The notes: generated from the sequence alone by a model not told the origin. Positions 25,191 through 41,704 are shown, numbered from the stretch's first letter. The stretch: DNA of 64,000 nt from Alphaproteobacteria bacterium (GCA_965249135.1 OZ252220.1:1312001-1376000); one strand, 5' to 3'. Made by a program: numbers and translations.

Positions 25191-26378
25191 ATGCTGCCCC
25201 TGGATGGTTTTCGCATTCTCGCCGTCGAGCAATATGGCGCCGGCCCCTTCGGGACGATGCTGCTGGGCGATCTTGGCGCCGAAATCATCAAGATCGAGAA
25301 CCCCGCCGAAGGCGGCGACATGGCGCGCGCCGTCGGCCCCTATTTTCTCGACTCCGGCGACAGCGAGTTCTTCCAGAGCTTCAACCGCAACAAGAAAAGC
25401 CTGACGCTGAACCTGAAGACGGCCGAGGGGCGCAAGACGCTGCACGACCTCGTGCGCACGGCGGACGGGCTGCTCGACAATCTGCGCGGCGACTTGCCGG
25501 AAAAACTCGGCCTCACCTACGCCGCGCTTCGCAACGTGAATCCCCGCATCGTCTGCGCCCATCTCTCGGCCTATGGGCGCGAGGGGGAACGCGCCGCCTG
25601 GCCCGGCTACGACTATCTCATGCAGGCAGAGTCCGGCTGTTTGCGCCTCACCGGCGAGCCGGACGGGCCACCGTCCCGCTGCGGCGTTTCCATCGTCGAC
25701 ATGATGACGGGTATCACGGCCAGCTTCGCGCTGCTTTCCGGCATGCTGGGCGCGCGCGTAAGCGGCCATGGCTTCGATCTCGACGCAAGCCTCTTCGATA
25801 CGGCGCTCCACAACCTTTCCTATCTTGCGACCTGGTACCTGAACGAGGGCGTGAACCAGGGCCGCAAAGCGCGCTCGAGCCATCCCTCGCTGACGCCGAG
25901 CCAGCTTTTCCGCACGAAGGACGGCTGGATCTTCATCATGTGCAACAAGGAGAAGTTCTGGCCCATTCTGGCCCGCGCCGTCGATCGTCCGGAATGGGCG
26001 GAAGACCCGGCCTTTCGCACCTTCGCCGACCGCCTGAAGCAACGGCGGAAATTGACGGAAATGCTGGACGCGGCATTGCAGGCGCGAACGACGGCGGCCT
26101 GGCTTGCCCATTTCGCAGGCCGCGTGCCGGCGGCGCCCGTCTACGACGTGCAACAAGCCCTCGACAATCCTTTCGTCAAGGCAAACGGCAATATCGGCAC
26201 CTTCCCCCACCCGACGCGGGAAGGCTTCGAGATGCTGCTCGGCCCCATCCGCGTCGGCGGCGAGGCGCCCCGCGCCGAACCGGCGCCGGCGCTCGGCGCG
26301 GACACAGACGCGCTCCTCGAAGGGCTCGGCTACGACAAGGCGCGGATCGCAGGCTTGCGCGAGAAGGGGATAATCTGA
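25191..26378 (+). CDS. Family III CoA-transferase (CaiB/BaiF)
   Basis: GAGPFGTMLLGDLGAEIIKIE, NRNKKSLTLNLK, GYDYLMQAESG, IVDMMTG; start at ATG 25191. Confidence 0.92.
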   Translation: MLPLDGFRILAVEQYGAGPFGTMLLGDLGAEIIKIENPAEGGDMARAVGPYFLDSGDSEFFQSFNRNKKSLTLNLKTAEGRKTLHDLVRTADGLLDNLRGDLPEKLGLTYAALRNVNPRIVCAHLSAYGREGERAAWPGYDYLMQAESGCLRLTGEPDGPPSRCGVSIVDMMTGITASFALLSGMLGARVSGHGFDLDASLFDTALHNLSYLATWYLNEGVNQGRKARSSHPSLTPSQLFRTKDGWIFIMCNKEKFWPILARAVDRPEWAEDPAFRTFADRLKQRRKLTEMLDAALQARTTAAWLAHFAGRVPAAPVYDVQQALDNPFVKANGNIGTFPHPTREGFEMLLGPIRVGGEAPRAEPAPALGADTDALLEGLGYDKARIAGLREKGII

Positions 26379-27178
26379 TGGCGCGGCGTGCGCCCGCGCT
26401 AGAACCGGGCGTGCCGCGCTACCGCGCCGTCGCCGCGGCGCTGGGCCGGGCGATTGCCAGCGGCGAGCACGCCGTCGGCGCGATGCTGCCGCCCGAGAAG
26501 ACGCTGTGTGCCACCTTCGGCGTCAGCCGGCACACGATCCGCGAGGCCATTCGGCTGATCGAATCGGAAGGCCTAGTGACGCGCCGCCAGGGCTCCGGCA
26601 CGACCGTGCGCCGTGCCGGGTCCGATGCGCGCTACGTCCAGTCCCTGGATTCCCTCGACGAGCTTTTGCAATACGCCGCCGAAACGAGGCTTCGCGTTCA
26701 CAAGACGCGCGAGATCGTCGTCGGAAGCGAAGCGGAACGCCGGCTGCTTGGCGCCGCCCTCGGCGAACGCTGGCTTCGCATCGAAGCGATACGCCTTGCC
26801 GGCGCCAGGGCCGGCGCCAGGGCCGGCGCCAGGAAGGATCTGCCGATCGCCTGGACGACGCTTTATCTGCCGGAACGATTCCGCGTCCTTCGCGAAACGA
26901 TCGGCGACGCCCATGAGGCCTGCGGGGCCCGCGAGGCCGTCTATCGCTTGATCGAGAAGCGTTTCGGGACGCGGATCGCCGAGGTCGAACAGGAAATCGG
27001 CGCCGCCGTCATCGAAGGCGGGATGGCGGAAAGGCTTGGCGTCGATCCCGGCACGCCCGGCCTTCGCATCACGCGGCGCTATCTCGACGTGGCCGGCGTG
27101 CCGCTGGAGGTCGCCGTGAACCTGCACCCGGCCGAGCGGTTCGCCTACCGGATGCGGCTACGGCGCGAGCGCGCCTAG
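26378..27178 (+). CDS. GntR (HutC/UTRA) family transcriptional regulator
   Basis: PRYRAVAAAL, LPPEKTLCATFGVSRHTIREAIRLIESEGLVTRRQGSGT HTH plus UTRA; ATG overlaps upstream TGA. Confidence 0.9.
   Translation: MARRAPALEPGVPRYRAVAAALGRAIASGEHAVGAMLPPEKTLCATFGVSRHTIREAIRLIESEGLVTRRQGSGTTVRRAGSDARYVQSLDSLDELLQYAAETRLRVHKTREIVVGSEAERRLLGAALGERWLRIEAIRLAGARAGARAGARKDLPIAWTTLYLPERFRVLRETIGDAHEACGAREAVYRLIEKRFGTRIAEVEQEIGAAVIEGGMAERLGVDPGTPGLRITRRYLDVAGVPLEVAVNLHPAERFAYRMRLRRERA
26798..26833 (+). repeat. 12-bp tandem repeat x3 (GCCGGCGCCAGG) encoding AGAR x3 inside the GntR gene
   Basis: Three exact copies at 26798, 26810, 26822. Confidence 0.9.
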
Positions 27179-29352
27179 CGGTAGTGCAGGACGCGGTATT
27201 TGTCGAACTCGATCCGCTTGCCCGGTGGAATGACGACGGTCGTCATCGGATCGCGGATGATGGCCGGGCCTTCGACGACGTTGCCGGCGGCAAGCGCCTC
27301 CATCTGCCAGACTTGAAAGTCCTGCCAGGCGTCTCGATGGAACACCTTGCGCGTCTCGACATACGCCGAATCGGTGGGCTTGGCCCCGGCCAGGGGGTGT
27401 TCGATGATCGCCGGCTGAGGCTTCGGGGCTACCGCCTGAATGTAAAGCTCGGTGATCGAATAGCCGGCGTCCGGGAAACGCGCGCCTTCCGGATAGATCT
27501 TCGTATACATGTCTTCGAAGGCGGCGACGATGCGATCGACGTCGGCCGCCGATTTCAGCGTGCCGAAATCGAGCGGCGTATCGAAGCTTTCGAGCTGGCC
27601 GAGATAGCGGACATAGGTGCCATAGCGGAAGGAAAGCTGTTTTAGGTCGACGCCTTCCTGCGCCATCTCGTCCTTGGCCGCCTGCTCAAGGCCGCGCCAG
27701 GACGCATCGAGCCGCTTCGCCATTTCCGCTTTCTCCGTTTCCTCCATGCCGTTCGGCACGAGTTCGACGAAGCCGCGATGGTAGCGATGCATGTATTCGG
27801 CGCAGGCCGCGCCGAAGGCCGAGAAGCCGGCTGCCCAGGGGAAGGTGATGACGTTGGCCAGGTCGATCCCTTCCGAATAGCCCCACATGTGGACGGGCCC
27901 GGCGCCGCCATAGCACAGCAAGGTGAAGTCGCGGGGGTTGTAGCCCTTCGAGGTGATCATCGTCGACGCCAGGTCGCGCATTTGCGTGTTGATGACCTCA
28001 AGCACGCCGCTGCCCGCCTCGTAGACGTCGAGGCCCAGCGGCTTCGCGATCACGCGCTCGAGTTCCGCATGGGCCCGGTCCTTGTCGAGCTTGACCTTGC
28101 CGCCCAGGAAATAGTCGGGATCGACGTAACCGAGGACGACATTGACGTCGGTGACGGTCAGGCGGTCGTATTTGTAGCAGATGCCGACATCGGCGCCGGC
28201 CGATTCGGGACCGACGCGCAGGCGCTTATAGGCGTCGATCTCGATCGCCGAACCGGCGCCGGAACCCGCCGAATCGATCGCCACCATCGGCAGCGCCAGG
28301 CGGTGCCCGGCGAAGTCGGCGTCCTTGCGAATGCCCAGCATGCCGTTGACCAGCAGACCCACGTCGAAGCTGGTGCCGCCCATGTCCGCCGTGATCGCGT
28401 TCTTGATGCCGAGCTTGTCGGCAAAAATCTGGGCGCCCATGAGCCCGCCGATGGGCCCGGAGATGATCGTCTCGTAAAGGCGCGGATAGTCCATGTTGAC
28501 GGCGCCGCCATAGGAAAGCAGCGTCAACAGCCGGCCGTCATAACCTTCCTTGACCGCCGCGTTCTCGACGCTGAGAAGGGATTCGCGCGTCAGTTCGGCC
28601 GCGAAGCATTGGATCAACAGGCTTTTCAGGCGATTGTTCTCGCGCGAAACCGGCGCGACGTCGGCGGAACAGACGACCGGAATCTTGCGCCCGCTTTTTT
28701 CGACGATCGCCTCGGCGATCCGCCGCGCGGTGTTCTCGTTCTCCGGGTTGACGTAGGAATTCAGGAACATGATGCCGATCACCTCGACGCCACCGGCGAG
28801 GAGGCGTTCCACGCCCTTGCGGACGTGGTCCTCGTTGACCGGGATCATGACCTCACCGGCGCCCATGTGGGACTGCATGAAATAGCTGCCGCCCGAGATG
28901 CGCTCGCTGATGCCGATGACGTTGCGCGGATCGACCATCGGGCGCGTGTGCTCGTGCAATTGCTGATGCAGGATTTCGGCCTGGGTCTGGCCAAGATAGG
29001 TGAGCCCGCCTTCCATGACGCTTATATGTTCGAACCCACGCGTCACCAGAAGGCCTACCTTGCGGCCGGTGCCGGTGAGAAGCGTGTTCAGCATGCCGGT
29101 GCCGGCGTAGATGGCGACGGAAGCTTGGCTGTGCACGTCCGTCGATTTCAGCCCCAGGGTCAGCGCCGCGTCTTCGACGGATTCGAGGTAGCTCGACGCC
29201 TCGTCTTTCCGGTTCGTCAGCGACTTGCCGATCGTGAAGTCGCCATCCGGCTTGACGAGGATCGTGTCCGTCATCGTTCCGCCTGCGTCAAGCGCGAGGA
29301 TGTAATTTTTTCCGTTCCCAGAAGAACCCGGTGACGCGGCGCCATTCGCCAT
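27175..29352 (-). CDS. Acetone-carboxylase-family beta (ATP-binding, AcxA/hydantoinase A-like) subunit
   Basis: LALDAGGTMTDT, YAGTGMLNTLL, ETIISGPIGG, ADMGGTSFD, GSGAGS, YGGAGPVH, GPAII; start ATG 29352 after GGGAG. Confidence 0.88.
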   Translation of the reverse strand: MANGAASPGSSGNGKNYILALDAGGTMTDTILVKPDGDFTIGKSLTNRKDEASSYLESVEDAALTLGLKSTDVHSQASVAIYAGTGMLNTLLTGTGRKVGLLVTRGFEHISVMEGGLTYLGQTQAEILHQQLHEHTRPMVDPRNVIGISERISGGSYFMQSHMGAGEVMIPVNEDHVRKGVERLLAGGVEVIGIMFLNSYVNPENENTARRIAEAIVEKSGRKIPVVCSADVAPVSRENNRLKSLLIQCFAAELTRESLLSVENAAVKEGYDGRLLTLLSYGGAVNMDYPRLYETIISGPIGGLMGAQIFADKLGIKNAITADMGGTSFDVGLLVNGMLGIRKDADFAGHRLALPMVAIDSAGSGAGSAIEIDAYKRLRVGPESAGADVGICYKYDRLTVTDVNVVLGYVDPDYFLGGKVKLDKDRAHAELERVIAKPLGLDVYEAGSGVLEVINTQMRDLASTMITSKGYNPRDFTLLCYGGAGPVHMWGYSEGIDLANVITFPWAAGFSAFGAACAEYMHRYHRGFVELVPNGMEETEKAEMAKRLDASWRGLEQAAKDEMAQEGVDLKQLSFRYGTYVRYLGQLESFDTPLDFGTLKSAADVDRIVAAFEDMYTKIYPEGARFPDAGYSITELYIQAVAPKPQPAIIEHPLAGAKPTDSAYVETRKVFHRDAWQDFQVWQMEALAAGNVVEGPAIIRDPMTTVVIPPGKRIEFDKYRVLHYR

Positions 29353-29408
29353 GGATAAAGTCTCCCTGTTCGAAAAAACGTCCGGCAATCGGACGCATCG
29401 GGCTTTTT

Positions 29409-29975
29409 TTAAGCTTTGCCCTTGGCCCAGCCGGCCGTTAATTCATGTGTCCGGTCCTGGTACCAGTCCGGCTTCGCATCGGAAAGTGGCCGCTCGACAA
29501 AATCCCGGTAGAAACGGTCGAGATCGGGCAGCATCTCGAAGACGATCGGGTAGCCCGGCGGCACGACCTCGACCGCAAGCTGCGCCGCGCAGCCCGGGCA
29601 ATAGAATTCACGAATAACGACCCACTCCGGATCGGGACACGCTTGGGAGGGGTAGTAGATCTCCTCGATCTCCTCCGGCGTCTCGCGCAGGCGAATAAGG
29701 GCGCTTAGTTTCCAATTCGCCCGGTAGTCGCCGAATTCCTGGCCGCAGTCGCATTTCACGACGCGATCGCCGTTTTCCTTACGCACGATGTAAAGATGAT
29801 CGGCAATCCGAAGAAGAATCGTATCGTCCCACGGCATGCGTTCCTGCAGGGCTTCGAGATAGGTCCAGAACCGTTCCGGGTCCTTTTGATCCATCTTGAG
29901 GAGCGAACGCGCGTCCTCGCGGCTGATCGTGCCTTCGATGAGCTGTTCGACGAGCCCTTTGTCCACCTTCGCCAT
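29409..29975 (-). CDS. Acetone-carboxylase-family gamma (Zn-binding, AcxC-like) subunit
   Basis: KDPERFWTYL, VKCDCGQEFGDYRANWKL, REFYCPGC (four Zn cysteines), PGYPIV..PDLDRFYRD. Confidence 0.9.
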   Translation of the reverse strand: MAKVDKGLVEQLIEGTISREDARSLLKMDQKDPERFWTYLEALQERMPWDDTILLRIADHLYIVRKENGDRVVKCDCGQEFGDYRANWKLSALIRLRETPEEIEEIYYPSQACPDPEWVVIREFYCPGCAAQLAVEVVPPGYPIVFEMLPDLDRFYRDFVERPLSDAKPDWYQDRTHELTAGWAKGKA

Positions 29976-29985
29976 GGGTCTGCTC

Positions 29986-32220
29986 CTAAACCGCGAAGTC
30001 GGAATCGAGGGACCAGAAGCCGCGGAATTCGCGATCGAACTTCGCGAAACTCATCGAGCCGCGGTACATGTCCGCGACCGCCTGGCTGAAATCACGGTCC
30101 AGCACCTTGCGGCGCTCGTCCCGCCACCATTCGGAAACCGGGCGCGCCTTGGCAAGCCGCTGCGCGCGGATCGCGGTGCGCTTTTCCTTCGTCGCCGCCT
30201 CGTCGAGCGTCCACGTGCCGTCGTCGCCCTGGCTCGCGACGATGCCATAGACGCGGGCCGCGTGCGCGTAAGGCACCCAGCTCATGTCGAGGTCCTCGAG
30301 GATGAGCTTCGTGTCCCGCTCGATCGGGTCGCCCCAACCGCCCGACGCACCGGCCGCGTTGGCCCACAAATCGTTGTGCCGCATCTCGAGTTCCGGCGGG
30401 TCGTAGTTCCAGACTTTCAGGTCGTCGACCTTGAGCGTGCCGTCCGCGGCCTGCTCGATCAACTCAAGGGCGTTGCGCGGCGTCTCGCCGCTGTCTTGAA
30501 TGATCGTGTCAATATTCGTGCCCTGAGCCGTAACGGTGAAGGCGTTCGGCGGCGGGTAGCCGCCGCTCATGCCGATGCCGAGGAAGGTCGTGATCGCGGT
30601 GCCGCCGCCGCTGTGACTGACGCCCAGGCGCTGGCCAGGCTCGACCATCCAATGGACGGAGGACTGACCGAGGCCGCCGCGATACTTCCCATGGCCACAG
30701 AAGCCCGGCAGCAGCGACCGGCCAAAGTAGAAGAAGGGCGGGATCAGATATTCGAATTCCTCGGCATTGCCGACATTCGAGAGCTGCGTCCACTCGGCCC
30801 AGCACATGGGCTCGCCGTCGCGGTAGCAGTAGGCGCCCTGGGAGACGCCGCCGACCCATTCGAAATTCGTGAAGCCGTAAGGCGTGCCGTCCTCGAGCAC
30901 GCCGGAGCCCTGCACGCCCTCCCAGTCGCCGTCCGTCGTGAAGGCCTCTTCCATGTAGCCGCGGGCAAACATGGCGCGGTTCATCGCGTTGAAGGCGAGG
31001 CTGTTCATCATGACGGATTGTGCCCAGATGACGGCGCTGCTGGCGAATTCGTTGTCCGGGTTGTAGAGGCAGCCTTTCGGATACTTGCTCTCGACGGCAA
31101 GGTTGATCGCCGCCGTCACCTTCGTGTTGTGGGAGAAGGTGTTCACCATGCTGAGATAAAGCGCGCAATCGGCGCCGCCCGGAAAGCCGTTGAAGGCGTG
31201 ATAGCCCCAGCGCGACGTGCCCTCCATGTCGACGACGACGCGGCCGCGATCGTCGATATCCAGGCTCTGGCGCACATGGAGCAGATGGTCCCGATCGGCG
31301 TGCGGCCAGATCTGTTGCATGCCTTTGTATTTCGCGATCCGGAAGGCACAGCCATTCTGCGTACCGGGAATCATGAGGGAATGGATGTTGTCCATGATCC
31401 GCTGGCGGCTTTCTTCGATGATTTCGCGAATCGCGCGGCGATAGTAATCGTAGCCGAACTCATCGATGATTTCGTGGATGGCCTTGTGAACCATCGCGCA
31501 GCCGGCAAGACGCATCTTGTCGTCGAGGATGTTGAGCGCCGCCGCCCGCGTGCGCCGTTTCCAAAGCGAATTCCACCAGGTCGCCTGACGAAGATTCTCG
31601 CCCGTCTTCATCGGTGGGAAGACGAACCCGTCCATGAAGGTGTCGACGCAGAAGCTTGGCCAGCTGCCGGCGACCGGCGCGCCGGCCTCCATGATGTGGT
31701 TGAGGCCGACCGCCCAGCCGACGACTTCGCCCTCGACGACGATCGGCACGTAACAATAGGTGTCGCCCGGATGGGGAGCGCCGCCCGTCAGGCCGTCATC
31801 CGTCATGAAGACGTCGCCGTCATTGATGCCGGGATTGTCCTCGTAGCCTTCTTCGATCATGTAGCGCACGGCCACCGGCATCGCCGCGCAATGGGAGAAG
31901 AAGCCGAGCGAGAGGGCCAGCGAATCGCCTTCCGGCGTCGTCAGCGCCCAGAGCGATTCGCCCATCTCGCGGCCGCCGGGGCTGGCGGCGACGTAACGGG
32001 CCACCTCGCGCGCCGCCAGCACGCAGGAATGAATGCGCGAATAGAACCGCTCGTATTTGACCGGGTCCGAATCGCGAAGCGTAAGCTCGGTGACACCGTA
32101 ATAATGGCCGGTCTCTTCCGTAAGCCGGTCCCGCTGCTCCAGCATCTCGCGCAGCGTAAGGCCGCCTTCTCCGGAAGCGGCTGCCTCTTCGCGCCGAATG
32201 GGCTTCGTGACTACGTTCAT
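29986..32220 (-). CDS. Acetone-carboxylase-family alpha (metal-binding, AcxB/hydantoinase B-like) subunit
   Basis: AASPGGREMGE, GFFSH, NPGINDGDVF, HPGD, NHIME, GHGKYRGG, GGWGDPIERD; N-terminal 'TGHYYG..LTLRDSDP' typical of AcxB rather than generic HyuB. Confidence 0.88.
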   Translation of the reverse strand: MNVVTKPIRREEAAASGEGGLTLREMLEQRDRLTEETGHYYGVTELTLRDSDPVKYERFYSRIHSCVLAAREVARYVAASPGGREMGESLWALTTPEGDSLALSLGFFSHCAAMPVAVRYMIEEGYEDNPGINDGDVFMTDDGLTGGAPHPGDTYCYVPIVVEGEVVGWAVGLNHIMEAGAPVAGSWPSFCVDTFMDGFVFPPMKTGENLRQATWWNSLWKRRTRAAALNILDDKMRLAGCAMVHKAIHEIIDEFGYDYYRRAIREIIEESRQRIMDNIHSLMIPGTQNGCAFRIAKYKGMQQIWPHADRDHLLHVRQSLDIDDRGRVVVDMEGTSRWGYHAFNGFPGGADCALYLSMVNTFSHNTKVTAAINLAVESKYPKGCLYNPDNEFASSAVIWAQSVMMNSLAFNAMNRAMFARGYMEEAFTTDGDWEGVQGSGVLEDGTPYGFTNFEWVGGVSQGAYCYRDGEPMCWAEWTQLSNVGNAEEFEYLIPPFFYFGRSLLPGFCGHGKYRGGLGQSSVHWMVEPGQRLGVSHSGGGTAITTFLGIGMSGGYPPPNAFTVTAQGTNIDTIIQDSGETPRNALELIEQAADGTLKVDDLKVWNYDPPELEMRHNDLWANAAGASGGWGDPIERDTKLILEDLDMSWVPYAHAARVYGIVASQGDDGTWTLDEAATKEKRTAIRAQRLAKARPVSEWWRDERRKVLDRDFSQAVADMYRGSMSFAKFDREFRGFWSLDSDFAV

Positions 32221-32372
32221 GGATGCCCCCTTCGCTCCCCCGAGCGGCCGGGCGCCGCCCGAAAACCAAGGCGCTCATGCTCCCACAAATGGGGGAAGGC
32301 GGCAAGGCATCCTGCGCGAGGGGCGCACGCTTTAAGCTTGCGATACTTAAGGAAATTTACCACTTTGGCCCG

Positions 32373-33548
32373 ATGGCGAGCGCGGCAAGCCCGTTGTTTT
32401 CCCCCTTCGAGCTCAGAGGCATCCGGCTTTTGAACCGCCTCGTTCTCTCGCCGATGGTCGTCTACTACGCCAAGGACGGCTTCTCGAACGACCTGCTTTT
32501 CTCCCATCTTTCGAAATTCGTGATCGGCGGCTTCGGCCTGGTGTTCACGGAAGCCGCCGCCGTCGAGGAGCGCGGCCGCATCAGCCATGGCGATCTCGGC
32601 ATCTGGAAGGACGAACACATCGCGCCTTTGCGCCGTTTTACGGATTTCGCCCGCGCCCATGGGGCGCTTTCCGGATTGCAGCTTGCCCATGCCGGCCACA
32701 AGGGGAGCTACCAGCGCGCCTATGAGGGCTATCGGCCGTTGGGAGAGAAGGACGCCCAACGCGGCGATCCTCCTTTCGAAACGATCGCGCCTTCACCGAT
32801 GGCTTACGGAGCAGGCGTGCCGGCCCCGCGCGCCATGACGCTTGCCGACATCGCAGACGTGCAGGAAGCCTGGCGCAAGGCGGCGCTCCGCGGCGTTGCG
32901 GCCGGCTTCGACGTGCTCGAGATTCACGGAGCGCATGGTTATTTGATCCATGAATTTCTTTCGCCGCTTACCAACGAACGAAGCGACGGTTACGGCGGCG
33001 ACCTTAAGGGACGCATGCGGTTTGGGCTGGAAATCGCGGAGAGCCTTCGCGAGGTGTGGCCCGACGACAAGCCGGTTTCCTTTCGGTTCTCCGTCATCGA
33101 CGGCGTCGACAAGGGGTGGGGAATCCAGGATTCGATTGCGTTCGTAAACGAATTAAAGAAGATCGGCATCGATCTGGTGGACTGCACGTCGGGCGGCACC
33201 GCGAAGCTTACGCGCGAAGACGCGCTTCCCCGCGAGCCCGGCTTTCACGTGCCATTGGCCGAAATCTTGCGCAAGGAAACCGGCATGGCGACGATCGTCG
33301 TCGGGCTGATCACGGAACCGGCCCAGGCAGACGCCATCCTGCGCGATGGGCGGGCCGACCTGATCGCCATTGGACGGGCGGCGCTGGACGATCCGAACTG
33401 GCCCTTGCATGCCTCCCTCGAGCTTGGTTCAAAGCTCGACTATTCGGCCTGGCCGCCGGAATATGGCTGGTGGCTGGAACGCCGCGCGAAGACGGCCGCG
33501 AAGATGGCCGCGAAGATGGAAGTCGAGCCGAAGACGAACAAGAAGTGA
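32373..33548 (+). CDS. Old Yellow Enzyme, YqjM/XenA-like NADH:flavin oxidoreductase
   Basis: NRLVLSPM, EAAAVEERGRIS, QLAHAGHK, EIHGAHGYLIHEFLSP, GRAALDDPNW; start ATG 32373. Confidence 0.9.
   Translation: MASAASPLFSPFELRGIRLLNRLVLSPMVVYYAKDGFSNDLLFSHLSKFVIGGFGLVFTEAAAVEERGRISHGDLGIWKDEHIAPLRRFTDFARAHGALSGLQLAHAGHKGSYQRAYEGYRPLGEKDAQRGDPPFETIAPSPMAYGAGVPAPRAMTLADIADVQEAWRKAALRGVAAGFDVLEIHGAHGYLIHEFLSPLTNERSDGYGGDLKGRMRFGLEIAESLREVWPDDKPVSFRFSVIDGVDKGWGIQDSIAFVNELKKIGIDLVDCTSGGTAKLTREDALPREPGFHVPLAEILRKETGMATIVVGLITEPAQADAILRDGRADLIAIGRAALDDPNWPLHASLELGSKLDYSAWPPEYGWWLERRAKTAAKMAAKMEVEPKTNKK
33486..33519 (+). repeat. Imperfect 12-bp tandem repeat x3 (GCGAAGA(C/T)GGCC) at the OYE C-terminus
   Basis: Units at 33486, 33498, 33510 encode AKTA-AKMA-AKME. 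Confidence 0.7.
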
Positions 33549-33556
33549 CTAAAGTT

Positions 33557-35515
33557 TTATGCCTTCGCCTTCGCGCGCAATTCCTCAAGCGCGGCCGGGT
33601 TCACGAGCGAGCTTAAGTCGCCCGGCTCAACGCCTAGATAGGTGGCGCGCACGACGCGGCGCATGATCTTCATCGAGCGCGTCTTCGGAAGGTCGGAAAC
33701 GAAGACGACGTCCTTGGGGCGGAACGCCTTGCCGTGGCCGGTGACGACCGCCTCGATCAAGGTGGTCTTTAAGTCCTCGTCCGCCGTTATGCCTTCGCCC
33801 GGCACGCAGACGCAGACGACGGCCGATCCTTTGATTTCGTCCGGCACGCCGATGGCGGCGGCCTCGCGAATGAGGCCGGTTTCCAGCACGATGCCCTCGA
33901 TCTCGGCCGGGCCCGTCCGCTTGCCGGCGACTTTAAGGGTATCGTCCGAGCGGCCAAGGACGTACCACATGCCGTCTTCGTCGATCGCCGACCAGTCGCC
34001 ATGCCGCCACAGACCTGGAAAGGTGCGCCAGTAGGTGTCGAGGTAGCGTTCCGGATCCTTCCACAGCCCCCGGGTGAGACCGATCGAGGGAAGGTTCATC
34101 ACCAGCTCGCCGACCTGGCCGGATGCGATCGGCTTTCCCTCCTCATCGACGACGCTGGCCCCCATCGCCGGCAGGGGGGCGTTGAAGGAGCGGGGCTTCA
34201 AGGGGCGGGTGACGATGCTGCCGATGATCCCACCACCGATTTCGGTGCCGCCGGAATAATTCAGGATCGGTACCTTCTGCTTGCAGACATGGGCGAAGAA
34301 CCAGTGCCATGCATCCGGCGTCCACGGCTCGCCGGTGGTGACCGTGATGCGAAGCCGGGAGAGATCGTAGTGTTCGACGACGTCCGTCCCTTGCGCCATG
34401 AAGATGCGGACGATGGTCGGCGCGATCCCCAAATAGCTGACCCGATAGTCCTGCATCAGGCGCCAGATGCGCCCCTGGTCCGGATAGTCGGGCGTGCCTT
34501 CGGCCAGGATGAGCGTGGCACCCATCGCACCGGCGAGCAGGATCTGGAAGGGACCGACGATCCAGCCCATGTCCGTCATCCAAAGCAGGCGATCGCTTTC
34601 CTTGAAGTCCTGACAGAGCACGAGGTCGATGATGATCTTCGTATAAAGGCCGCAATGGGTATGGACGGTTCCCTTCGGCTTGCCGGTCGTGCCGGAGGTA
34701 TGGACGACCATGAGGGTGGCTTCCGCATCCACGGGTTCCGTCGGCGCCTCCATCGGCGCATCGGCCAGAAGTTCGTGCCACCAATGGTCGCGTGTCTTGT
34801 CCCATGGCACCGGATCGTCGAGATGTTTGAAGACGACGACGTCGGTGACGCTTGGGATGTCGGCAAGGGCCGCATCGAGGGTCGCCTTCATCGGCACGCG
34901 TTTGCCGCGACGAAGGGCGCCATCCACCGCGATCACCGCCTTCGCCTCGCAATCATTGAGACGCACGGCGATCGCCTGCTTGCCGAAGCCGGAGAAGAGC
35001 GGCACGACGATGCCGCCTATCTTGGCGATGGCAAGGAAGGCGGCCGCGACCTCGAGGCCGAGCGGCATGAAAAGGCCGATCGCATCCCCCGGTCCAAGCC
35101 CCAATCGGCGAAGTGCGGTGGCAAGGCGCGAGACTTCCGCGTCGTATTCCGCATAGGTCCATTTGCGCTTGCGCCCATCCTCGCCTTCCCAGACGAGCGC
35201 ATCCTTGTTCCAGATTGCCGTATCGCGGTGCTTGTCGAGCGCGTTCAGCACGACGTTCGTCGTGCCGCCGACGCACCAACGCGCGTGCTCGATGCCTCCT
35301 GAGGTGTCGAGAATCTGCGTATAGGGTTGAAAGAAGCGAATGCCGTAATGGCGGATGACGGCGTCGTTGAACCATTCCGGGTCTTCGTTCGAGCGCGCAA
35401 GCAGCGCCGCAAAGTCGGGCAGGTTTTCCGCCCGCAGAAAGGCGGTGAGGTTGCTTTTCTCCTGGATCTCCGGCGATGGCCGCCAGGCGATCGGTTCCGT
35501 TGCAAAATCTTCCAC
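33557..35515 (-). CDS. AMP-forming acyl-CoA synthetase (acetate/acetoacetate-CoA ligase-like)
   Basis: HTSGTTGKPKG, TDMGWIVGP, TGEPW, SGGTEIGG, GRSDDTLKVAGKR, LPKTRSMKIMRR. Confidence 0.92.
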   Translation of the reverse strand: MEDFATEPIAWRPSPEIQEKSNLTAFLRAENLPDFAALLARSNEDPEWFNDAVIRHYGIRFFQPYTQILDTSGGIEHARWCVGGTTNVVLNALDKHRDTAIWNKDALVWEGEDGRKRKWTYAEYDAEVSRLATALRRLGLGPGDAIGLFMPLGLEVAAAFLAIAKIGGIVVPLFSGFGKQAIAVRLNDCEAKAVIAVDGALRRGKRVPMKATLDAALADIPSVTDVVVFKHLDDPVPWDKTRDHWWHELLADAPMEAPTEPVDAEATLMVVHTSGTTGKPKGTVHTHCGLYTKIIIDLVLCQDFKESDRLLWMTDMGWIVGPFQILLAGAMGATLILAEGTPDYPDQGRIWRLMQDYRVSYLGIAPTIVRIFMAQGTDVVEHYDLSRLRITVTTGEPWTPDAWHWFFAHVCKQKVPILNYSGGTEIGGGIIGSIVTRPLKPRSFNAPLPAMGASVVDEEGKPIASGQVGELVMNLPSIGLTRGLWKDPERYLDTYWRTFPGLWRHGDWSAIDEDGMWYVLGRSDDTLKVAGKRTGPAEIEGIVLETGLIREAAAIGVPDEIKGSAVVCVCVPGEGITADEDLKTTLIEAVVTGHGKAFRPKDVVFVSDLPKTRSMKIMRRVVRATYLGVEPGDLSSLVNPAALEELRAKAKA

Positions 35516-35547
35516 GCGTGGCGTCCTTCTTTACTTGCCCGATCCGC

Positions 35548-36651
35548 TCACGCCGCCCCGGATGTCTCCAGCGCCGGATAGTCCGTGTAGCCCTTCGCAT
35601 CCCCCCCATAGAAGGTGGCAGGGTCCGCTTCGGCGAGGGCCGCCCCCAGCTCAAGCCGATGGACAAGATCGGGGTTGGCGAGAAAGGGGCGTGCGAAGGC
35701 GACCAGATCGGCGCGGCTTTCCGCGATGGCGGCCTCGGCGCGCGCGCCGTCATAGCCGCCATTCGCCAGATAGGGCCCATTGAAGGCCTCGCGCATGGCC
35801 GGCCAGTCGAAGGCGGCGGCTTCGCCGACCAGGTTCACCTCGACGACGTGGAGATAGGCGAGCTTCTGCCTGCCAAGCATGGAGGCGATGGCCGGGAAGG
35901 TCGTCTCGGGCGCGCTGTCCTTTATATCGTTGAAGGCATTGACCGGCGAAAGCCGCACACCGATGCGGTCCGCACCCCACACATCTGCGACGGCTTCGAC
36001 CACGTCGTGCAGAAGCCGCGCGCGGTTTATCAGCGAACCACCGTAACGGTCTTCCCGGTGGTTCGTGCCGTCGCGCAGGAACTGGTCGAGCAGGTAGCCA
36101 TTCGCCGCGTGGATTTCGACGCCGTCGAAGCCCGCCTGCTTGGCGTTTTCGGCGGCCTTTCGGAATTGCGCGAGGATGCCGGGGATCTCGTCGGTGTTAA
36201 GCGCCCTGGGCGTCACGAAAGGTTGCGGGCCGTCATAGGTGATCGCCTCTCCTTGCGCGCGGATGGCGGAAGGGGCTACGGGAAGCTCGCCGTCCGGCTG
36301 AAGCGAAGGGTGCGAGATGCGCCCGACATGCCAAAGCTGCAGGAAGATGCGCCCGCCTTCCTCATGCACGGCGTCCGTCACGCCCCGCCAGCCCGCCACC
36401 TGTTCCGCCGAATGGATGCCAGGCGTCGCCGGATAGCCGAACCCTTGCGTCGAGATTTGCGTTGCCTCCGTGATGATCAGCGCCGCATTTGCGCGCTGCC
36501 GGTAATAGGTGACGTTTAAGTCTTGGGGCACGTTGCCGGGCCCGGCGCGGTTCCGCGTCATCGGCGCCATGACGATGCGATGGGGAAGTTTGAGCGGTCC
36601 CAATTGCAGCGGCGTGAAAAGATGGGGAAAGGGCTGCTTCGTCATCGTCAT
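35548..36651 (-). CDS. Old Yellow Enzyme, classical NemA-like alkene (ene) reductase
   Basis: IVMAPMTRNRA, QLWHVGRISH, EIHAANGYLLDQFL, FLANPDLV, KGYTDYP. Confidence 0.93.
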   Translation of the reverse strand: MTMTKQPFPHLFTPLQLGPLKLPHRIVMAPMTRNRAGPGNVPQDLNVTYYRQRANAALIITEATQISTQGFGYPATPGIHSAEQVAGWRGVTDAVHEEGGRIFLQLWHVGRISHPSLQPDGELPVAPSAIRAQGEAITYDGPQPFVTPRALNTDEIPGILAQFRKAAENAKQAGFDGVEIHAANGYLLDQFLRDGTNHREDRYGGSLINRARLLHDVVEAVADVWGADRIGVRLSPVNAFNDIKDSAPETTFPAIASMLGRQKLAYLHVVEVNLVGEAAAFDWPAMREAFNGPYLANGGYDGARAEAAIAESRADLVAFARPFLANPDLVHRLELGAALAEADPATFYGGDAKGYTDYPALETSGAA

Positions 36652-37400
36652 GCCGCCGTGTAGCCGCCGTCGACGACGAACTCGGCGCCATCGACGTAGG
36701 AGGATTCGTCGGAAGCAAGGAAAAGAACCACGTTTGCCACTTCCTCCGGCTTACCGGCGCGGCCTAAGATGGTCGGGCCAAGGATATGCTTTTCCAGTTC
36801 CGGATCGTCGCTGATGGCGGCCGTCATCGGCGTCTCAATAAGGCCCGGGTGCACGGAATTCGAACGGATGTTGTGGGCTGCGTATTCCACGGCGACGGAT
36901 TTCGTAATCAACCGCACGCCGCCTTTCGAGGCCTGGTAGGCGGCCGCGTTGGCGACCCCGATCATGCCGTACATCGAGGAGATGTTGATGATGGAGCCGG
37001 CTCCTGCCTTCTTCATGGCAGGCAGGATGGCCTTGCAGCCAAGAAAGACGCCCCGCAGATTGACCGCAAGGGTGCGATCGAATTCGTCGGCGGAGGTTTC
37101 CTGGATCGGTTTGTAGATGAGGATGCCGGCATTGTTGACCAGCACGTCGACCTTGCCGTACTCGCCGATCGCCTTGTCGACGACGGCTTGCCATTCGCCT
37201 TCGCTGGTCACGTCCAAGGGTAGGAAGATGGCCTCGCCGCCTTCTTGCTTGATGGCCTCGACGACGGCCTTGCCTTCCTTGTCGGCGATGTCGGTGACGA
37301 CGACCTTCGCCCCTTCGCTCGCCAGGACCTGCGCATCGGCCTTGCCCATGCCCATGGCGCCGCCCGTAACCAGCGCGACCTTGCCTTCTACGCGCCCCAT
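36648..37400 (-). CDS. SDR, cyclopentanol/cyclic-alcohol dehydrogenase (CpnA)-like
   Basis: MGRVEGKVALVTGGAMGMG, NNAG, S-YxxSK, VHPGLIETPMT, LGPTILGRA, VVDGGYTA; closely matches my recollection of Comamonas CpnA. Confidence 0.8.
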   Translation of the reverse strand: MGRVEGKVALVTGGAMGMGKADAQVLASEGAKVVVTDIADKEGKAVVEAIKQEGGEAIFLPLDVTSEGEWQAVVDKAIGEYGKVDVLVNNAGILIYKPIQETSADEFDRTLAVNLRGVFLGCKAILPAMKKAGAGSIINISSMYGMIGVANAAAYQASKGGVRLITKSVAVEYAAHNIRSNSVHPGLIETPMTAAISDDPELEKHILGPTILGRAGKPEEVANVVLFLASDESSYVDGAEFVVDGGYTAA

Positions 37401-37450
37401 GTCTTCCCCCCTTATCCGTTCTTTTTTAGCGTTGGCCCTGTCTTAAAACT

Positions 37451-38386
37451 TCAAGCGCTCCGCCGGACGATGTTCGGCATGCTGACGACGTCCTGGCATT
37501 CGCCATAGCCGATCCGGCCGTCCATGTTCCATTCCATCAGCGTGGCGAAATCGCAGGTGTTCGGCCAACACATCCACGGGAATCCCGTCATCGCACTGCC
37601 CGTGAAGTGGTAGGTCCGATCTTGGACGTCGGTCACCTCGACGTTCATGCCGACCTGCATGAGGCCATCCCGCGTCGAGTGGCCCTTGCCGCTCTTTAGC
37701 CCGTAGACCTTTCCGTTCTCCAGCACGTAGCCATGGGCAAACGGGCTCAACACCTCGGCATTTAAGGGATCGAAGCCGAAGATGCAGTGGATGGTCATCT
37801 CGCGGCCGAAGCTCACATGGAACCAGCTGGCGGAAGGGTAGTCGGCTTCCGGCCGCGGTCCCCAACTGTGATCCATCGTCGAGACGGAATCGATCTTGTA
37901 GCTTTTGCCTTTTACCTTGAGCGTGCCCTTGAAATGGCCCGTCTGGTCGAAGTGGCCCTTGATCGGCTTTTCCTTCGGCGCGTTGGGGTCCATCTCCGGG
38001 TCCGTGATGTCATAGGGCGGCATGAGCCCTTCGAACTCGACGTGAAACTCGGTGTCGTTCTTTCCCTTATAGGTCAACAGATAGTCCATCGGCGGGTTCA
38101 CGGCCTTTACGGAAAGGCCGTTGCCGAGCGCGTAGTCCCCAACCTTCTCCGGCAAGGGCAGGTGGGCGTGCTCGTCGTAGTAGAGCGCCTCGATGCGGTG
38201 CTTCGGGAAGCCCTGGACGACCTGGACGCTGGAAAGCACGACGCCAAGGGTGGGACGCGAGAGAAAATAGATGCCGACGTTGATCTTCTCTTCCGGGATA
38301 TTGAAGCCGAAGAAGTTCGTCTCCGCCCAAAGCGGATCGCCATCCGCCGGGATGTGAAATTCCATGATGTCGTTTACCGAGATCAT
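37451..38386 (-). CDS. Uncharacterised 311-aa protein, probable CrtC/AttH/tocopherol-cyclase-like double beta-barrel
   Basis: WAETNFFGF, GHFDQTGHFKGTLKVKG, MDHSWGPRP, GYGECQD; beta-rich and soluble; GGGGAGG RBS; tightly spaced within the badI operon. Confidence 0.6.
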   Translation of the reverse strand: MISVNDIMEFHIPADGDPLWAETNFFGFNIPEEKINVGIYFLSRPTLGVVLSSVQVVQGFPKHRIEALYYDEHAHLPLPEKVGDYALGNGLSVKAVNPPMDYLLTYKGKNDTEFHVEFEGLMPPYDITDPEMDPNAPKEKPIKGHFDQTGHFKGTLKVKGKSYKIDSVSTMDHSWGPRPEADYPSASWFHVSFGREMTIHCIFGFDPLNAEVLSPFAHGYVLENGKVYGLKSGKGHSTRDGLMQVGMNVEVTDVQDRTYHFTGSAMTGFPWMCWPNTCDFATLMEWNMDGRIGYGECQDVVSMPNIVRRSA

Positions 38387-38425
38387 GTTTGCCTCCCCTG
38401 TTTCGCTTCGTTTTCAGTCTCGAAG

Positions 38426-39208
38426 CTATTTCATGAATTTACGGAAATCCGCCTTCCGTTTTTCCAGGAAGGCCTTCACGCCTTCCTGAGATTCTTCGGT
38501 CCCATAGTAAAGGGCGAGGGCCTGCATGCCCAGATTGGCGATGCCGGCGATGTTATCCGTGTCCGCATTGAAGGAACGCTTCGCAATGGCGATCGCGGTT
38601 GGGGACTTGTCCATGATTTCCGCGCACCATTGATCCACTTCTTCGTCCAGCTTGTCGTGGGGCACGACGACATTCACAAGCCCCATCTCAAGGGCCTCCT
38701 TAGCCGTGTAACGCCGGCACAGGTACCAGATCTCGCGCGCCTTCTTCTCGCCGACGAGGCGGGCAAGGTAGGCGGTGCCGTAGCCGGGATCGACGGAACC
38801 CATCTTCGGGCCGACCTGGCCGAACTGGGCCTTCTCGGATGCAATGGTGAGATCGCAGAGCGTGGCGAGCACGTTGCCGCCGCCGATCGCATAGCCCTGA
38901 ACGCGGGCGATGACCGGTTTCGGTGCGATGCGGATGGCGTTTTGAAATTCCTCGATCGGCATGCCGATCGTGCCCTTGCCTTCGTAAGCACCTTCATGGC
39001 CAGACTGATCGCCGCCCGCGCAGAAGGCCTTGTCGCCGGCGCCCGTCAACACGATGACGCCGATCGACTTGTCCCAGCTTGCGCTCGCAAAGGCGTCGAT
39101 CAGTTCATCGACGGTGACGGCGCGAAAGGCGTTCATGCGGTCGGGGCGGTTGATGGTGATCCGCGCCACGCCCGCGTTTACCTCGTAAAGAATGTCCTCA
39201 TAGGCCAT
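38426..39208 (-). CDS. badI: 2-ketocyclohexanecarboxyl-CoA hydrolase (MenB-like crotonase)
   Basis: YEDILYE, AFCAGGDQSGHEGAYEGKGTIG, IGGGNVLATLCD, FGQVGPKMGSVDPGYGTA, GEKKAREIWY; matches recalled R. palustris BadI. Confidence 0.9.
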   Translation of the reverse strand: MAYEDILYEVNAGVARITINRPDRMNAFRAVTVDELIDAFASASWDKSIGVIVLTGAGDKAFCAGGDQSGHEGAYEGKGTIGMPIEEFQNAIRIAPKPVIARVQGYAIGGGNVLATLCDLTIASEKAQFGQVGPKMGSVDPGYGTAYLARLVGEKKAREIWYLCRRYTAKEALEMGLVNVVVPHDKLDEEVDQWCAEIMDKSPTAIAIAKRSFNADTDNIAGIANLGMQALALYYGTEESQEGVKAFLEKRKADFRKFMK

Positions 39209-39350
39209 GATCGCGTCCTTTCTTCCCTCTTGCCATTCTAGCGGGCAATGGGGCCTCGGAAACCCTCTTCCGGCCCCCGATGGCCGCCGAAAGGACCCCT
39301 TAAAAATCCAAGTTTTCTGCCGTTTTTCCGCCTTTCGCCGGAGGATGGGC

Positions 39351-39391
39351 TTGACAGGCCGCGTCCCTGGGGCCTAGCTAATGCTAGTTAG
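39351..39391 (+). promoter_or_regulatory. Sigma70-type promoter of the tetR operon with overlapping palindromic operator (copy 2)
   Basis: TTGACA at 39351-39356, 17 nt, CTAGCT; imperfect palindrome CTAGCTA-ATGC-TAGTTAG at 39374-39391. Confidence 0.6.
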
Positions 39392-39403
39392 AAAACAGGC
39401 GGC

Positions 39404-40042
39404 GTGCAAATGAATTCACTCAAGGAAAAGAAGGTGGCGACGGCGCGCAAATCCGTCGTCTCGCGGCGCGAGATCCTCGACGCCGCGGCGGCGCTTCTGC
39501 GCACGAAGGGCTACTACGCGACGACCCTTCGCGACATCGCGTCTGCCGTCGGCATGAAGGCGGGCAGCGTCTACTACCACTTCGATTCGAAGGAACAGAT
39601 TCTCGAAGAAGTGCTGGACATCGGCATTCAGTCCGTCTTCGACGCGGTGCGCGCGGGCGTCGATGCGCTGCCGAAGACGGCGCCCTGGCGTGAGCGCTTT
39701 CGGGTCGCGTTGCACGCACACCTTGCTTCGCTCTTTCAGTTGGGAGACTACACGTCTGCGAACATTCGCGTCTTCGGTCAGGCGCCGCGCCACATCCACG
39801 AACGCCACATGCGCATTCGCCGGGCTTACGAAGATTATTGGAAGGACATGTACCGCGAAGCCCAGGCGGCGGGGGAAATTCGCGGTGAGGTGAATCTGAC
39901 GGCGCTTCGCCTGCTGGTCTTCGGCGCCATGAACTGGGCGGTCGAATGGTACCGGCCGGGCAAGGAAACCATCGCGACCTTGGCCCAGGAATATACGCGC
40001 ATCCTTTGCGACGGCATTACGCCCAAGAAGACTTCCAAATAG
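39404..40042 (+). CDS. TetR family regulator (AtuR/KstR2-like C-terminal domain)
   Basis: ILDAAAALLRTKGYYATTLRDIASAVGMKAGSVYYHFDSKEQIL; GAMNWAVEWYRP. Confidence 0.92.
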   Translation: MQMNSLKEKKVATARKSVVSRREILDAAAALLRTKGYYATTLRDIASAVGMKAGSVYYHFDSKEQILEEVLDIGIQSVFDAVRAGVDALPKTAPWRERFRVALHAHLASLFQLGDYTSANIRVFGQAPRHIHERHMRIRRAYEDYWKDMYREAQAAGEIRGEVNLTALRLLVFGAMNWAVEWYRPGKETIATLAQEYTRILCDGITPKKTSK

Positions 40043-40050
40043 AAGTCGCA

Positions 40051-40074
40051 ATCCCGAACGTCATCCCGAACGTC
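40051..40074 (+). repeat. Exact 12-bp tandem duplication ATCCCGAACGTC x2 (intergenic)
   Basis: Copies at 40051-40062 and 40063-40074. Confidence 0.85.
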
Positions 40075-41699: not shown

Positions 41700-41704
41700 A
41701 CGCG

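Follow-up and report, generated by a model that had tools for sequence, protein, structure and literature searches.

A ligase-coupled, non-canonical carboxylase of the acetone carboxylase family suggests that an alphaproteobacterium degrades a ketone larger than acetone without oxygen

In a stretch of 64,000 nucleotides from an Alphaproteobacteria bacterium (GCA_965249135.1 OZ252220.1:1312001-1376000; here called the window, meaning the whole stretch), a three-subunit carboxylase of the acetone carboxylase (Acx) family lies beside a coenzyme A (CoA) ligase and a group of other catabolic genes. Such a set of genes suggests that a ketone bigger than acetone is degraded without the use of oxygen. 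Judging from the genes, the carboxylase and the ligase probably act together on a ketone larger than butanone, by a logic of the kind known from acetophenone carboxylase (Apc) and benzoylacetate-CoA ligase (Bal). What is new here, and what we regard as solid, is the predicted variant of this carboxylase-ligase logic in an uncharacterised and widespread Acx clade. Ketones are chemically inert, and besides Baeyer-Villiger oxygenation the main known way to activate them is ATP-dependent carboxylation. To our knowledge, the only substrates for which this reaction has been characterised are acetone, butanone, some short alkanones and acetophenone. An earlier interpretation made from the DNA alone (the sequence-only reading) had proposed that cyclic ketones are carboxylated by the Acx-like enzyme, activated by the ligase and opened by a BadI-like hydrolase. 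Its account of a non-canonical, ligase-coupled Acx-family carboxylase held up, while the tie to BadI was weakened.

All three subunit families of the Acx type are present, with Pfam scores far above the cut-offs. The alpha subunit scores 369.8 bits by phmmer against the alpha subunit of the Xanthobacter enzyme (5svb_A), the beta subunit 548.3 bits against Acx beta (5svb_B) and the gamma subunit 149.8 bits by phmmer against 5svb_C. This crystallised acetone carboxylase is the best solved match for all three subunits; acetophenone carboxylase, caprolactamase/5-oxoprolinase and N-methylhydantoinase score lower. The manganese ligands of Acx are alpha His150, His175, Asp153 and Glu89, and its gamma zinc site consists of Cys74, 76, 124 and 127, as given in passages of PMC5543143. 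In alignments to 5svb_A and 5svb_C, all four alpha ligands and the four-cysteine gamma site (CxC...CPxC) are matched by identical residues in the window proteins, and the alpha ligands are invariant across 16 diverse clade relatives. Because the Mn and Zn ligands align to identical residues and the alpha ligands do not vary among relatives, the window enzyme is very probably an active Acx-type carboxylase and not a lactamase-type hydrolase. With the gamma subunit present, this agrees with the sequence-only reading, which had called the three genes an acetone-carboxylase-family operon, and we consider it very likely that the product is an ATP-dependent ketone carboxylase.

Sequence comparison places the enzyme outside the canonical acetone carboxylases, in a separate, widespread and uncharacterised clade. 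Its alpha subunit is 30-37% identical to 12 outgroup (canonical-side) sequences. In a tree of 30 full-length alpha subunits, 18 clade members were split from these 12 by a branch with 100% support in the Shimodaira-Hasegawa-like approximate likelihood ratio test (SH-aLRT); the tree left out the partial sequences L003, L008, L024, L026, L028, L029, L031 and L032 and duplicate records (L and G numbers are our handles for loci and genomes, G000 being the host genome). Against the crystallised Xanthobacter enzyme, two of the outgroup sequences reach 1234 and 1123 bits, which marks the outgroup side as the acetone carboxylases proper. The subunit order separates the groups in the same way: alpha-gamma-beta in the window and in every clade locus showing two or more subunits, beta-alpha-gamma (acxABC) in 10 of 10 canonical-side loci tested and in an intermediate lineage, L142. 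Several genomes hold more than one Acx-family enzyme. G566 has a canonical copy together with a ligase-linked clade copy, G534 a divergent outgroup copy beside a clade copy, and G401, a gammaproteobacterial metagenome-assembled genome (MAG), three Acx-family operons with alpha identities of 70%, 60% and 45%. Such paralogues within one genome argue for different substrates. Separate clade, different gene order and coexistence with a canonical copy in G566 all bear out the view that the carboxylase is not a canonical acetone carboxylase.

A search of 5.8 billion proteins returned 205 matches to the alpha subunit at E <= 1e-100, and the best 120 of these 205 are 52-99% identical to it. For the source-named entries among those 120, the label is hydantoinase B, N-methylhydantoinase B or acetone carboxylase alpha subunit, and none points to an enzyme that has been characterised. 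Cultured bacteria among the carriers are Paenibacillus validus, Aneurinibacillus terranovensis and Kyrpidia spormannii, at 58-63% identity. Among 401 genomes of the bacterium's own class, the clade type occurs only in G000 and three congeners, and five others have a copy 32-33% identical; among 401 genomes of the class of G401, it occurs in three (G401, G534 and G566).

The coupling of carboxylase and ligase is, on sequence evidence, the best-supported functional link of the locus. In the neighbourhood counts, which cover 14 non-genus clade loci with usable flanks together with the genus genomes, ligase orthologues (42-56% identical) adjoin the carboxylase in 4 of the 14 loci (L018, L025, L026 and L122). 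The two are also adjacent in all 5 of the 5 genus genomes and in the separate beta-alpha-gamma lineage L142. Of the gammaproteobacterial genomes compared, all 3 that carry a clade carboxylase of non-FAH type (G401, G402 and G566) also have a ligase orthologue, as against 0 of the 2 that lack such a carboxylase (G534 and G707), which have Acs-like matches only, 35-36% identical. G401 has the special ligase twice (L142 = G401:C4; L141 = G401:C42), in both cases behind a gene for a family-III CoA-transferase. Dicarboxylate-type members of this transferase family also lie next to the ligase in the window and in L026, as they do in L141 and L142.

The ligase itself departs from the enzymes that it most resembles. 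It falls below the cut-offs of the acetyl-CoA synthetase (Acs) models NF001208 (547.3 bits, cut-off 657) and TIGR02188 (536.5, cut-off 724.95), of the acetoacetate-CoA ligase models NF002937 / TIGR01217 (385.6 and 299.8, cut-offs 639 and 520.9) and of the NCBIfam propionate-CoA ligase models. Its acyl-pocket motif reads NYSGGTEIG where Acs and the genome's own Acs-like paralogue (31% identical) read HWWQTETG / WWQTETG, and the replacement of WW by S/T-G is found in 5 of 5 aligned Acx-linked ligases (window, L018, L025, L026 and L122). The tryptophan of the Acs WW motif selects for chain length and limits Acs to acetate. The link between the carboxylase and its neighbouring ligase, suggested in the sequence-only reading, is thus strengthened by recurrent adjacency and by a motif shared across unrelated lineages.

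The simplest alternative is a plain acetone or butanone carboxylase with a ligase making acetoacetyl-CoA, the nearness of the badI, old yellow enzyme (OYE) and short-chain dehydrogenase/reductase (SDR) genes being catabolic gene clustering in a small genome. The conserved catalytic ligands and the acetone carboxylase as closest solved structure fit this reading, as does the fact that Acetone_carb_G has a single match in the genome and the window enzyme is the only Acx-family enzyme there. Acetone carboxylation is also documented in marine bacteria (PMC13714315). We nevertheless consider the plain acetone reading improbable, and the least probable of those weighed here, given the low identity to canonical-side alpha subunits, the separate clade with its different gene order, the canonical Acx that G566 keeps beside its ligase-linked clade copy, and a ligase that does not reach the acetoacetate-CoA ligase cut-offs. 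Moreover, OYE genes are linked to the carboxylase in more than one lineage, and no ene-reductase is required for acetone. The passages of PMC13714315 on 13 marine AcxB homologues in three deeper clades assign no substrate to them, and in those of PMC13677872 the canonical enzymes are restricted to acetone and butanone, longer alkanones being shown for an Apc-type enzyme from Rhodococcus.

The genes beside the ligase would fit the supply of a ketone. The second OYE gene named in the sequence-only reading is present, with the amendment that it lies on the plus strand, divergent from the carboxylase operon; its probable start is at 32373, where relatives align from residue 51, the position of a Met. 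In every genus genome examined, and in G566 (51% identity), this OYE2 has stayed next to the carboxylase, and in L027 an OYE directly follows the carboxylase. The SDR, called CpnA-like in the sequence-only reading, has only sub-threshold equivalog matches (best NCBIfam model ChcB1, 265 bits, cut-off 400), and its neighbours in the Protein Data Bank (PDB) include hydroxysteroid, R-alcohol and cyclohexanol dehydrogenases (4ure, 174 bits); by these matches it is of a generic secondary-alcohol type.

The DUF7064 protein, the gene of no stated function in the same run, is modelled by AlphaFold2 with a predicted local distance difference test (pLDDT) score of 95.1 and a predicted template modelling (pTM) score of 0.92. 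Foldseek places the 25-phosphosteroid lyase 9g4c at the top (E 6.6e-13, TMq 0.70), followed by kievitone hydratase, AttH and fungal pericyclases, with probability 1.00 and 11-15% identity. The modelled fold is an AttH/CrtC-type beta-barrel. The solved relatives named here use alkenes or tertiary alcohols as substrates, in many cases within isoprenoid chains, and the protein is itself a likely hydratase or lyase for a substrate of this kind. When G000 is compared with the congener G113, no other gene of the block is as well conserved as the window copy, with 91.5% identity compared to 75-82% for its neighbours. Including it, the 2.1-Mb genome has five DUF7064/DUF7065 proteins; of the four paralogues (G000:C1:466342-469440 and 132213-133127), three stand in tandem, and the genes around the paralogues at 466-469 kb were uninformative.

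The relation of this block to badI is less direct. A tight minus-strand run from badI to the ligase (39208-33557), as described from the sequence alone, is confirmed by open reading frames (ORFs), coordinates, family matches and short gaps; the intergenic distances from badI through the DUF7064, SDR and OYE genes to the ligase are 39, 50, -4 and 32 nt. The BadI-like crotonase scores 463.5 bits against TIGR03210, just below the cut-off of 467.6, and lower against MenB models (365.9 and 333.9, cut-offs 380 and 342.7). It lies on the non-MenB side of a tree split with 99/99 support. Several genes around it had been missed in the sequence-only reading: an AliB equivalog, a FadH-type reductase and a TetR-controlled operon (39404-48904) for a methylcrotonyl-CoA carboxylase (MCC). 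The aliB equivalog is 17 kb from badI, and because it lies in the window the ordinary cyclohexanecarboxyl-CoA route can account for BadI.

The arrangement in G113, whose alpha subunit is 77% identical, helps to separate the parts. There, contig C5 carries ubiA, aliB, an acyl-CoA dehydrogenase (ACAD) gene, fadH, a gene of no assigned function, badI divergent from tetR, and the MCC operon, while contig C1 carries the carboxylase, OYE, ligase, OYE, SDR and DUF7064 genes beside bipA. badI and the carboxylase block would be more than 150 kb apart even if the two contigs abutted. The G113 aliB orthologue is 82.6% identical and 5 kb from badI, and the FadH-type reductase is conserved beside both. From this arrangement the stable partners of badI appear to be aliB, fadH and tetR-MCC, and the carboxylase block a separate unit. 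In G000, G272 and G405 that block stands between fadH and badI; in G272 and G405 no other gene separates badI from the ligase, and the divergent badI/tetR pair recurs in G272, G405 and G113. We therefore infer two catabolic modules side by side: a conserved backbone (module 1: aliB, fadH, badI, tetR and MCC) and a putative ketone-activation block (module 2: 27175-38386).

These observations bear on the cycloalkanone route of the sequence-only reading, in which a cyclic alcohol or enone would become a cycloalkanone, be carboxylated by the Acx-like enzyme to a 2-oxocycloalkanecarboxylate, converted to its CoA ester and opened by BadI ring hydrolysis to a dicarboxyl-CoA of the pimeloyl or adipyl type. 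The route is attractive and unproven, and it is now less likely than it first seemed; we rate it as unlikely. Its appeal comes from the single same-strand run, from the contact of badI with the ligase in G272 and G405, from the presence of a MenB/BadI-family crotonase in the unrelated operon L018, and from the rarity of MenB/BadI-family genes, which were found in 4 of 81 sampled gammaproteobacterial genomes at E <= 1e-80. Outside the genus, however, a gene of this family stands beside the carboxylase in 1 of the 14 loci only: in L018, an Acx-ligase operon unrelated to that of the window, a crotonase lies between SDR and ligase, and it groups with MenB at 99/99 support. The idea of two independent BadI recruitments is weakened by that grouping. 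BadI-like genes 65-68% identical in G402, G534 and G707 follow an SDR gene (with an enoyl-CoA hydratase gene too in G402 and G534) away from any carboxylase, and the carboxylase-ligase pair of G566, flanked by an OYE and a PcaF-type thiolase, occurs in a genome with no BadI/MenB match at E <= 1e-60. The co-occurrence of carboxylase and badI expected by the sequence-only reading is accordingly not borne out beyond the genus, and within it G113 keeps the two apart. The aliB equivalog of the window would offer a conventional source of BadI substrate. The only family precedent in the passages of PMC13677872 for carboxylation of a ring-methylene type is 3-pentanone in cell extracts.

The absence of competing enzymes counts in favour of the cycloalkanone route. 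The sequence-only reading had noted that no Baeyer-Villiger monooxygenase (BVMO) lies in the window, and this extends to the whole genome (2.12 Mb, 98.75% complete), where none is recognisable and neither the FMO-like family PF00743 nor the luciferase-like family PF00296 has a match; the Pyr_redox_3 matches are weak, none exceeding 52 bits, and similar ones occur in all 14 control genomes. That no other ketone-activating enzyme can be recognised also favours the wider reading of a carboxylase-ligase module. The genome also has no PcaF equivalog (best 384.6, cut-off 597). It had been allowed in the sequence-only reading that badH, badK, aliA and a BVMO elsewhere in the genome might explain badI and the SDR. 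This applies in part: besides the aliB equivalog, the genome has an AliA-like ligase (708 bits, cut-off 792) at a distance of ~270 kb, alone beside a transporter and not in a bad cluster, but there is no BadH equivalog in the genome (best 227.5, cut-off 431) and no BVMO. No BadK gene adjoins badI, and no BadK-specific model search was made. The literature searched held no "cyclohexanone carboxylase" and no acetone carboxylase in connection with both cyclohexanone and carboxylation.

Other neighbours suggest a dicarboxyl-CoA product and can be read in more than one way. The genes at 23396-26378 have sub-threshold NCBIfam matches to RipB/Ich (the MaoC protein), glutaryl-CoA dehydrogenase (the ACAD) and succinate-glutarate CoA-transferase; this set travels with the carboxylase in G405 and shows synteny in L003. 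In L122 the order is OYE, a 3-oxoadipyl-CoA thiolase (PcaF) equivalog (682.8 bits, cut-off 597), carboxylase, ligase and SDR. The dicarboxylate-flavoured neighbours, namely the family-III CoA-transferases, the glutaryl-CoA-dehydrogenase-like ACAD, the Ich-like MaoC and the PcaF thiolase of L122, would fit either a ring-opened dicarboxyl-CoA, as in the cycloalkanone route, or a carboxylated omega-1 oxo acid.

The latter belongs to an acyclic reading, with no ring at the carboxylation step. The substrate would be an isoprenoid methyl ketone or an omega-1 oxo acid, such that levulinate is carboxylated to 3-oxoadipate or 5-oxohexanoate to 3-oxopimelate, and the beta-ketoacyl-CoA would be cleaved by a thiolase or, here, by BadI-like hydrolysis. 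The gene order of L122 and the recurrent dicarboxylate-type CoA-transferases agree with this, and so do the resemblance of the AttH-fold protein to enzymes of isoprenoid side chains and the adjacent MCC operon. According to passages of PMC13677872, the characterised family members all carboxylate acyclic ketones, mostly methyl ketones. Even so, the reading depends wholly on inference from neighbouring genes, the window cluster has no thiolase, and the MCC operon is part of the backbone and not of the carboxylase block. As the genome's only MCC, the operon may simply serve leucine catabolism. The literature searched showed no link of Acx-type enzymes to oxo-acid or isoprenoid-ketone substrates and, in the parts covered, no relevant work on acetone carboxylases and terpenes. 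Carboxylation of isoprenoid ketones has reportedly been described in reports of the Rontani type. We treat the acyclic substrate as tentative and rather doubtful when taken alone, and consider the cyclic and acyclic readings as sub-cases of the explanation that we prefer, a ketone larger than butanone.

A terpene pathway with an Atu-like geranyl-CoA carboxylase operon was considered and rejected: the carboxyltransferase of the right-hand operon is of the MCC type (595.8 bits to MCC beta 3u9r_B vs 424.9 to geranyl-CoA carboxylase beta 5ikl_B), and the MCC-like pair is the only one in the genome. The operon may serve leucine/isovalerate catabolism as well as branched end-products.

For a ketone larger than butanone, we propose the following scheme. 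Starting from an enone or a secondary alcohol, the OYEs and the SDR would produce a ketone that is saturated and can enolise, with the AttH-fold protein perhaps hydrating a side-chain or ring alkene. The non-canonical ATP-, Mn- and Zn-dependent carboxylase would then add CO2 at the alpha-carbon to give a beta-keto acid, the dedicated ACS-like ligase with its altered acyl pocket would convert this to a beta-ketoacyl-CoA, and the C-C bond next to the keto group would be cleaved. The cleaving enzyme may differ between lineages, as three kinds of ligase-linked locus each have a different one: PcaF thiolase in L122, a MenB-like crotonase in L018 and the BadI-like hydrolase in G000, G272 and G405. 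Module 1 could be an Ali/Bad- or Mrc-like route for alicyclic or branched acyl-CoAs. The position of module 2 inside module 1 in this genome and two close relatives would explain why badI and the ligase gene belong to a single run. A 2-oxo-cycloalkane-carboxyl-CoA may be the point where the modules join; alternatively, the substrate of BadI may be a different beta-ketoacyl-CoA.

Several points weigh against this interpretation. Of the 14 non-genus loci, only the four named above have the ligase next to the carboxylase, and in L005, the closest relative outside the genus, a distance of 87 kb separates the ligase orthologue from it. The argument from the altered pocket leans on the role of the Acs tryptophan. 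Because 6 of the 14 non-genus loci instead carry a gene of the FAA-hydrolase family, the clade is functionally mixed. As the genome's sole Acx-family enzyme, the carboxylase could still serve acetone, and the boundary between the modules relies on one congeneric genome, G113. Finally, the characterised family members in the passages of PMC13677872 take methyl or small ketones only: acetone, butanone and, in cell extracts of Rhodococcus, ketones as large as 2-hexanone and 3-pentanone.

If the clade is what it seems, its own gene order, ligase partner and ene-reductase neighbours would widen the known chemistry of ketone activation and offer biocatalysts that form C-C bonds. It also matters for environmental surveys in which every acxB homologue is taken for an acetone carboxylase; passages of PMC13714315 already flag the deeper clades as uncertain in substrate. 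A broader proposal would take the alpha-gamma-beta clade (more than 100 protein clusters) as ketone carboxylases beyond acetone, each paired with a C-C-cleaving enzyme (BadI-like, MenB-like, PcaF thiolase or FAA-family hydrolase), together with carboxylative opening of cycloalkanones in this genus; in this full form we find it hard to favour and offer it as speculation. Were the cyclic part true, alicyclic ketones would have a first route in which carboxylation leads to ring opening independently of oxygen, a carboxylative counterpart of Baeyer-Villiger cleavage feeding the 2-oxo-cycloalkane-carboxyl-CoA node shared with Ali/Bad.

The features of the locus are collected in Table 1. All genes named in the sequence-only reading were found where it had placed them, with strong family matches. 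The window has a GC content of ~62%, and third-position GC makes the coding frames clear; all named genes are long ORFs with high third-position GC.

Table 1. Genes of the catabolic locus, with positions counted from the first nucleotide of the window.
Feature	Position	Strand	Family evidence
AliB/BadJ cyclohexanecarboxyl-CoA dehydrogenase equivalog	20089-21243	-	TIGR03207 578.5 bits (cut-off 575.35)
FadH-type 2,4-dienoyl-CoA reductase	21345-23378	+	PF00724 (OYE) + PF07992 (Pyr_redox_2)
MaoC (R)-hydratase, acyl-CoA dehydrogenase, family-III CoA-transferase	23396-26378	+	Pfam
Carboxylase beta subunit, nucleotide-binding (Hydantoinase_A N, middle and C domains)	27175-29388	-	PF01968 + PF19278 + PF05378
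Carboxylase gamma subunit (Acetone_carb_G)	29409-29975	-	PF08882 133.8 bits
Carboxylase alpha subunit (Hydantoinase_B)	29986-32220	-	PF02538
OYE ene-reductase 2, NamA/YqjM-like	32373-33548 (ORF opens 32223)	+	PF00724 223 bits
ACS-like AMP / acyl-CoA ligase	33557-35515	-	PF00501 + PF13193 + PF16177
OYE ene-reductase 1, NemA type	35548-36651	-	PF00724 283.7 bits; NF007899 403.2 bits (cut-off 403)
SDR, secondary-alcohol / cyclic-alcohol dehydrogenase type	36648-37400	-	PF13561 + PF00106
DUF7064/DUF7065 protein ("unknown" in the sequence-only reading)	37451-38386	-	PF23212 + PF23213
BadI-like crotonase (MenB/BadI), 2-ketocyclohexanecarboxyl-CoA hydrolase-like	38426-39208	-	TIGR03210 463.5 bits
TetR regulator, divergent from badI	39404-40042	+	PF00440 + PF17932
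MCC (Liu-type) operon: carboxyltransferase, enoyl-CoA hydratase, biotin carboxylase-BCCP, acyl-CoA dehydrogenase, SDR, CoA-transferase III, epoxide hydrolase	40098-48904	+	Pfam

The flanks of the window (9017-15161, 53000-55891 and 57967-58911) hold ordinary housekeeping genes, among them an aa3 cytochrome c oxidase cluster with ctaB, ctaG and SURF1, secA, argJ, accA and a XerC/D-type recombinase, so the catabolic island would span ~20-49 kb. A scan of 26300-40200 gave 0 promoter-like sites and 12 terminator-like sites compared with 13.5 expected, and was uninformative on operon limits. Downstream of the beta subunit, an ORF at 26573-27127 on the minus strand has no family match and a low-complexity translation rich in Ala, Gly, Arg and Asp, and relatives share 51-54% identity with it from end to end; it may encode a genuine small protein that evolves quickly or be the shadow of something else, and is doubtful as a gene. 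The host genome is a single contig of 2,118,282 bp, 98.75% complete, and its closest named relatives are uncultured Rhodospirillaceae / Alphaproteobacteria MAGs. DNA near-identical to 29986-39208 (0.26-1.00 of sampled words) was seen in runs of 10 studies under 10 organism labels, none recorded as RNA, and the bacterium may be host-associated or a common co-isolate.

Some further observations concern the carboxylase clade at large. A sister sub-clade of alpha-gamma-beta carboxylases (100% support) includes L020, L023, L031, L032, L120 and L121, where a gene of the FAA-hydrolase family follows directly; L019 and L030 group with them. A gene resembling Zn-dependent alcohol dehydrogenases and quinone oxidoreductases is found in 4 of the 6 FAA-type loci (L020, L023, L031 and L121), luciferase-like monooxygenases lie nearby in all 6 and GntR regulators in L023 and L120. 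These loci look like another uncharacterised ketone-carboxylase system, in which the hydrolase may cleave a C-C bond of the free beta-keto acid. Two Xanthobacter genomes (L006 2868-3521 and L007 1760-2413) hold a 218-residue stretch only, 79% identical to alpha residues 22-239, with no gamma or beta gene beside it; it may be the remnant of a clade gene in a genus known for canonical Acx. In L027 (738-2259) the clade carboxylase is followed by the OYE and a PrpD-family gene, beside a Toprim-like gene and a Tn3 transposase fragment, a context that hints at a mobile module.

Comparison with known systems helps to place the locus. The mrc ring-cleavage cluster of Castellaniella defragrans comprises an acyl-CoA dehydrogenase, the dienoyl-CoA reductase MrcC, MaoC hydratases and the BadI-like MrcE (passages of PMC4109377). 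Like it and the Ali-Bad pathway of Rhodopseudomonas, the window has a BadI-like crotonase near an AliB equivalog, a FadH-type reductase of the MrcC class, MaoC hydratases and acyl-CoA dehydrogenases. Unlike them, it shows badI with no adjoining BadK gene in a genome with no BadH equivalog, and has an Acx-family block between fadH and badI, an arrangement undescribed for either pathway.

The carboxylase shares with Acx of Xanthobacter autotrophicus Py2 (PDB 5svb, 5svc and 5m45) the three subunit families, the Mn ligands and the four-cysteine zinc site of the gamma subunit. It differs in the 30-37% identity of its alpha subunit to the canonical side, its separate clade, its alpha-gamma-beta order and its dedicated ligase and OYEs, and its clade coexists with canonical Acx in G566. 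Acr of Rhodococcus aetherivorans, an Apc homologue that carboxylates aliphatic ketones, has Apc-type subunits and an essential epsilon subunit, unlike the three Acx-type subunits of the window. Apc of Aromatoleum aromaticum (PDB 5l9w) is likewise distant in sequence: the window alpha subunit scores 127.5 bits to Apc delta and the beta subunit 316.7 to Apc gamma, and the window has neither a second kinase-type subunit nor an epsilon subunit. Its ligase is of the ACS family and is likened to Bal by pathway role, not by sequence. The apcA-E genes stand in an operon with the benzoylacetate-CoA ligase gene, and the route leads from an alcohol dehydrogenase through carboxylase and ligase to thiolysis, as described in passages of PMC5214803. 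It is this pathway logic, from a dehydrogenase to an ATP-dependent ketone carboxylase, a co-encoded ligase for the beta-keto acid and cleavage of a C-C bond, that the window appears to share with Apc and its benzoylacetate-CoA ligase.

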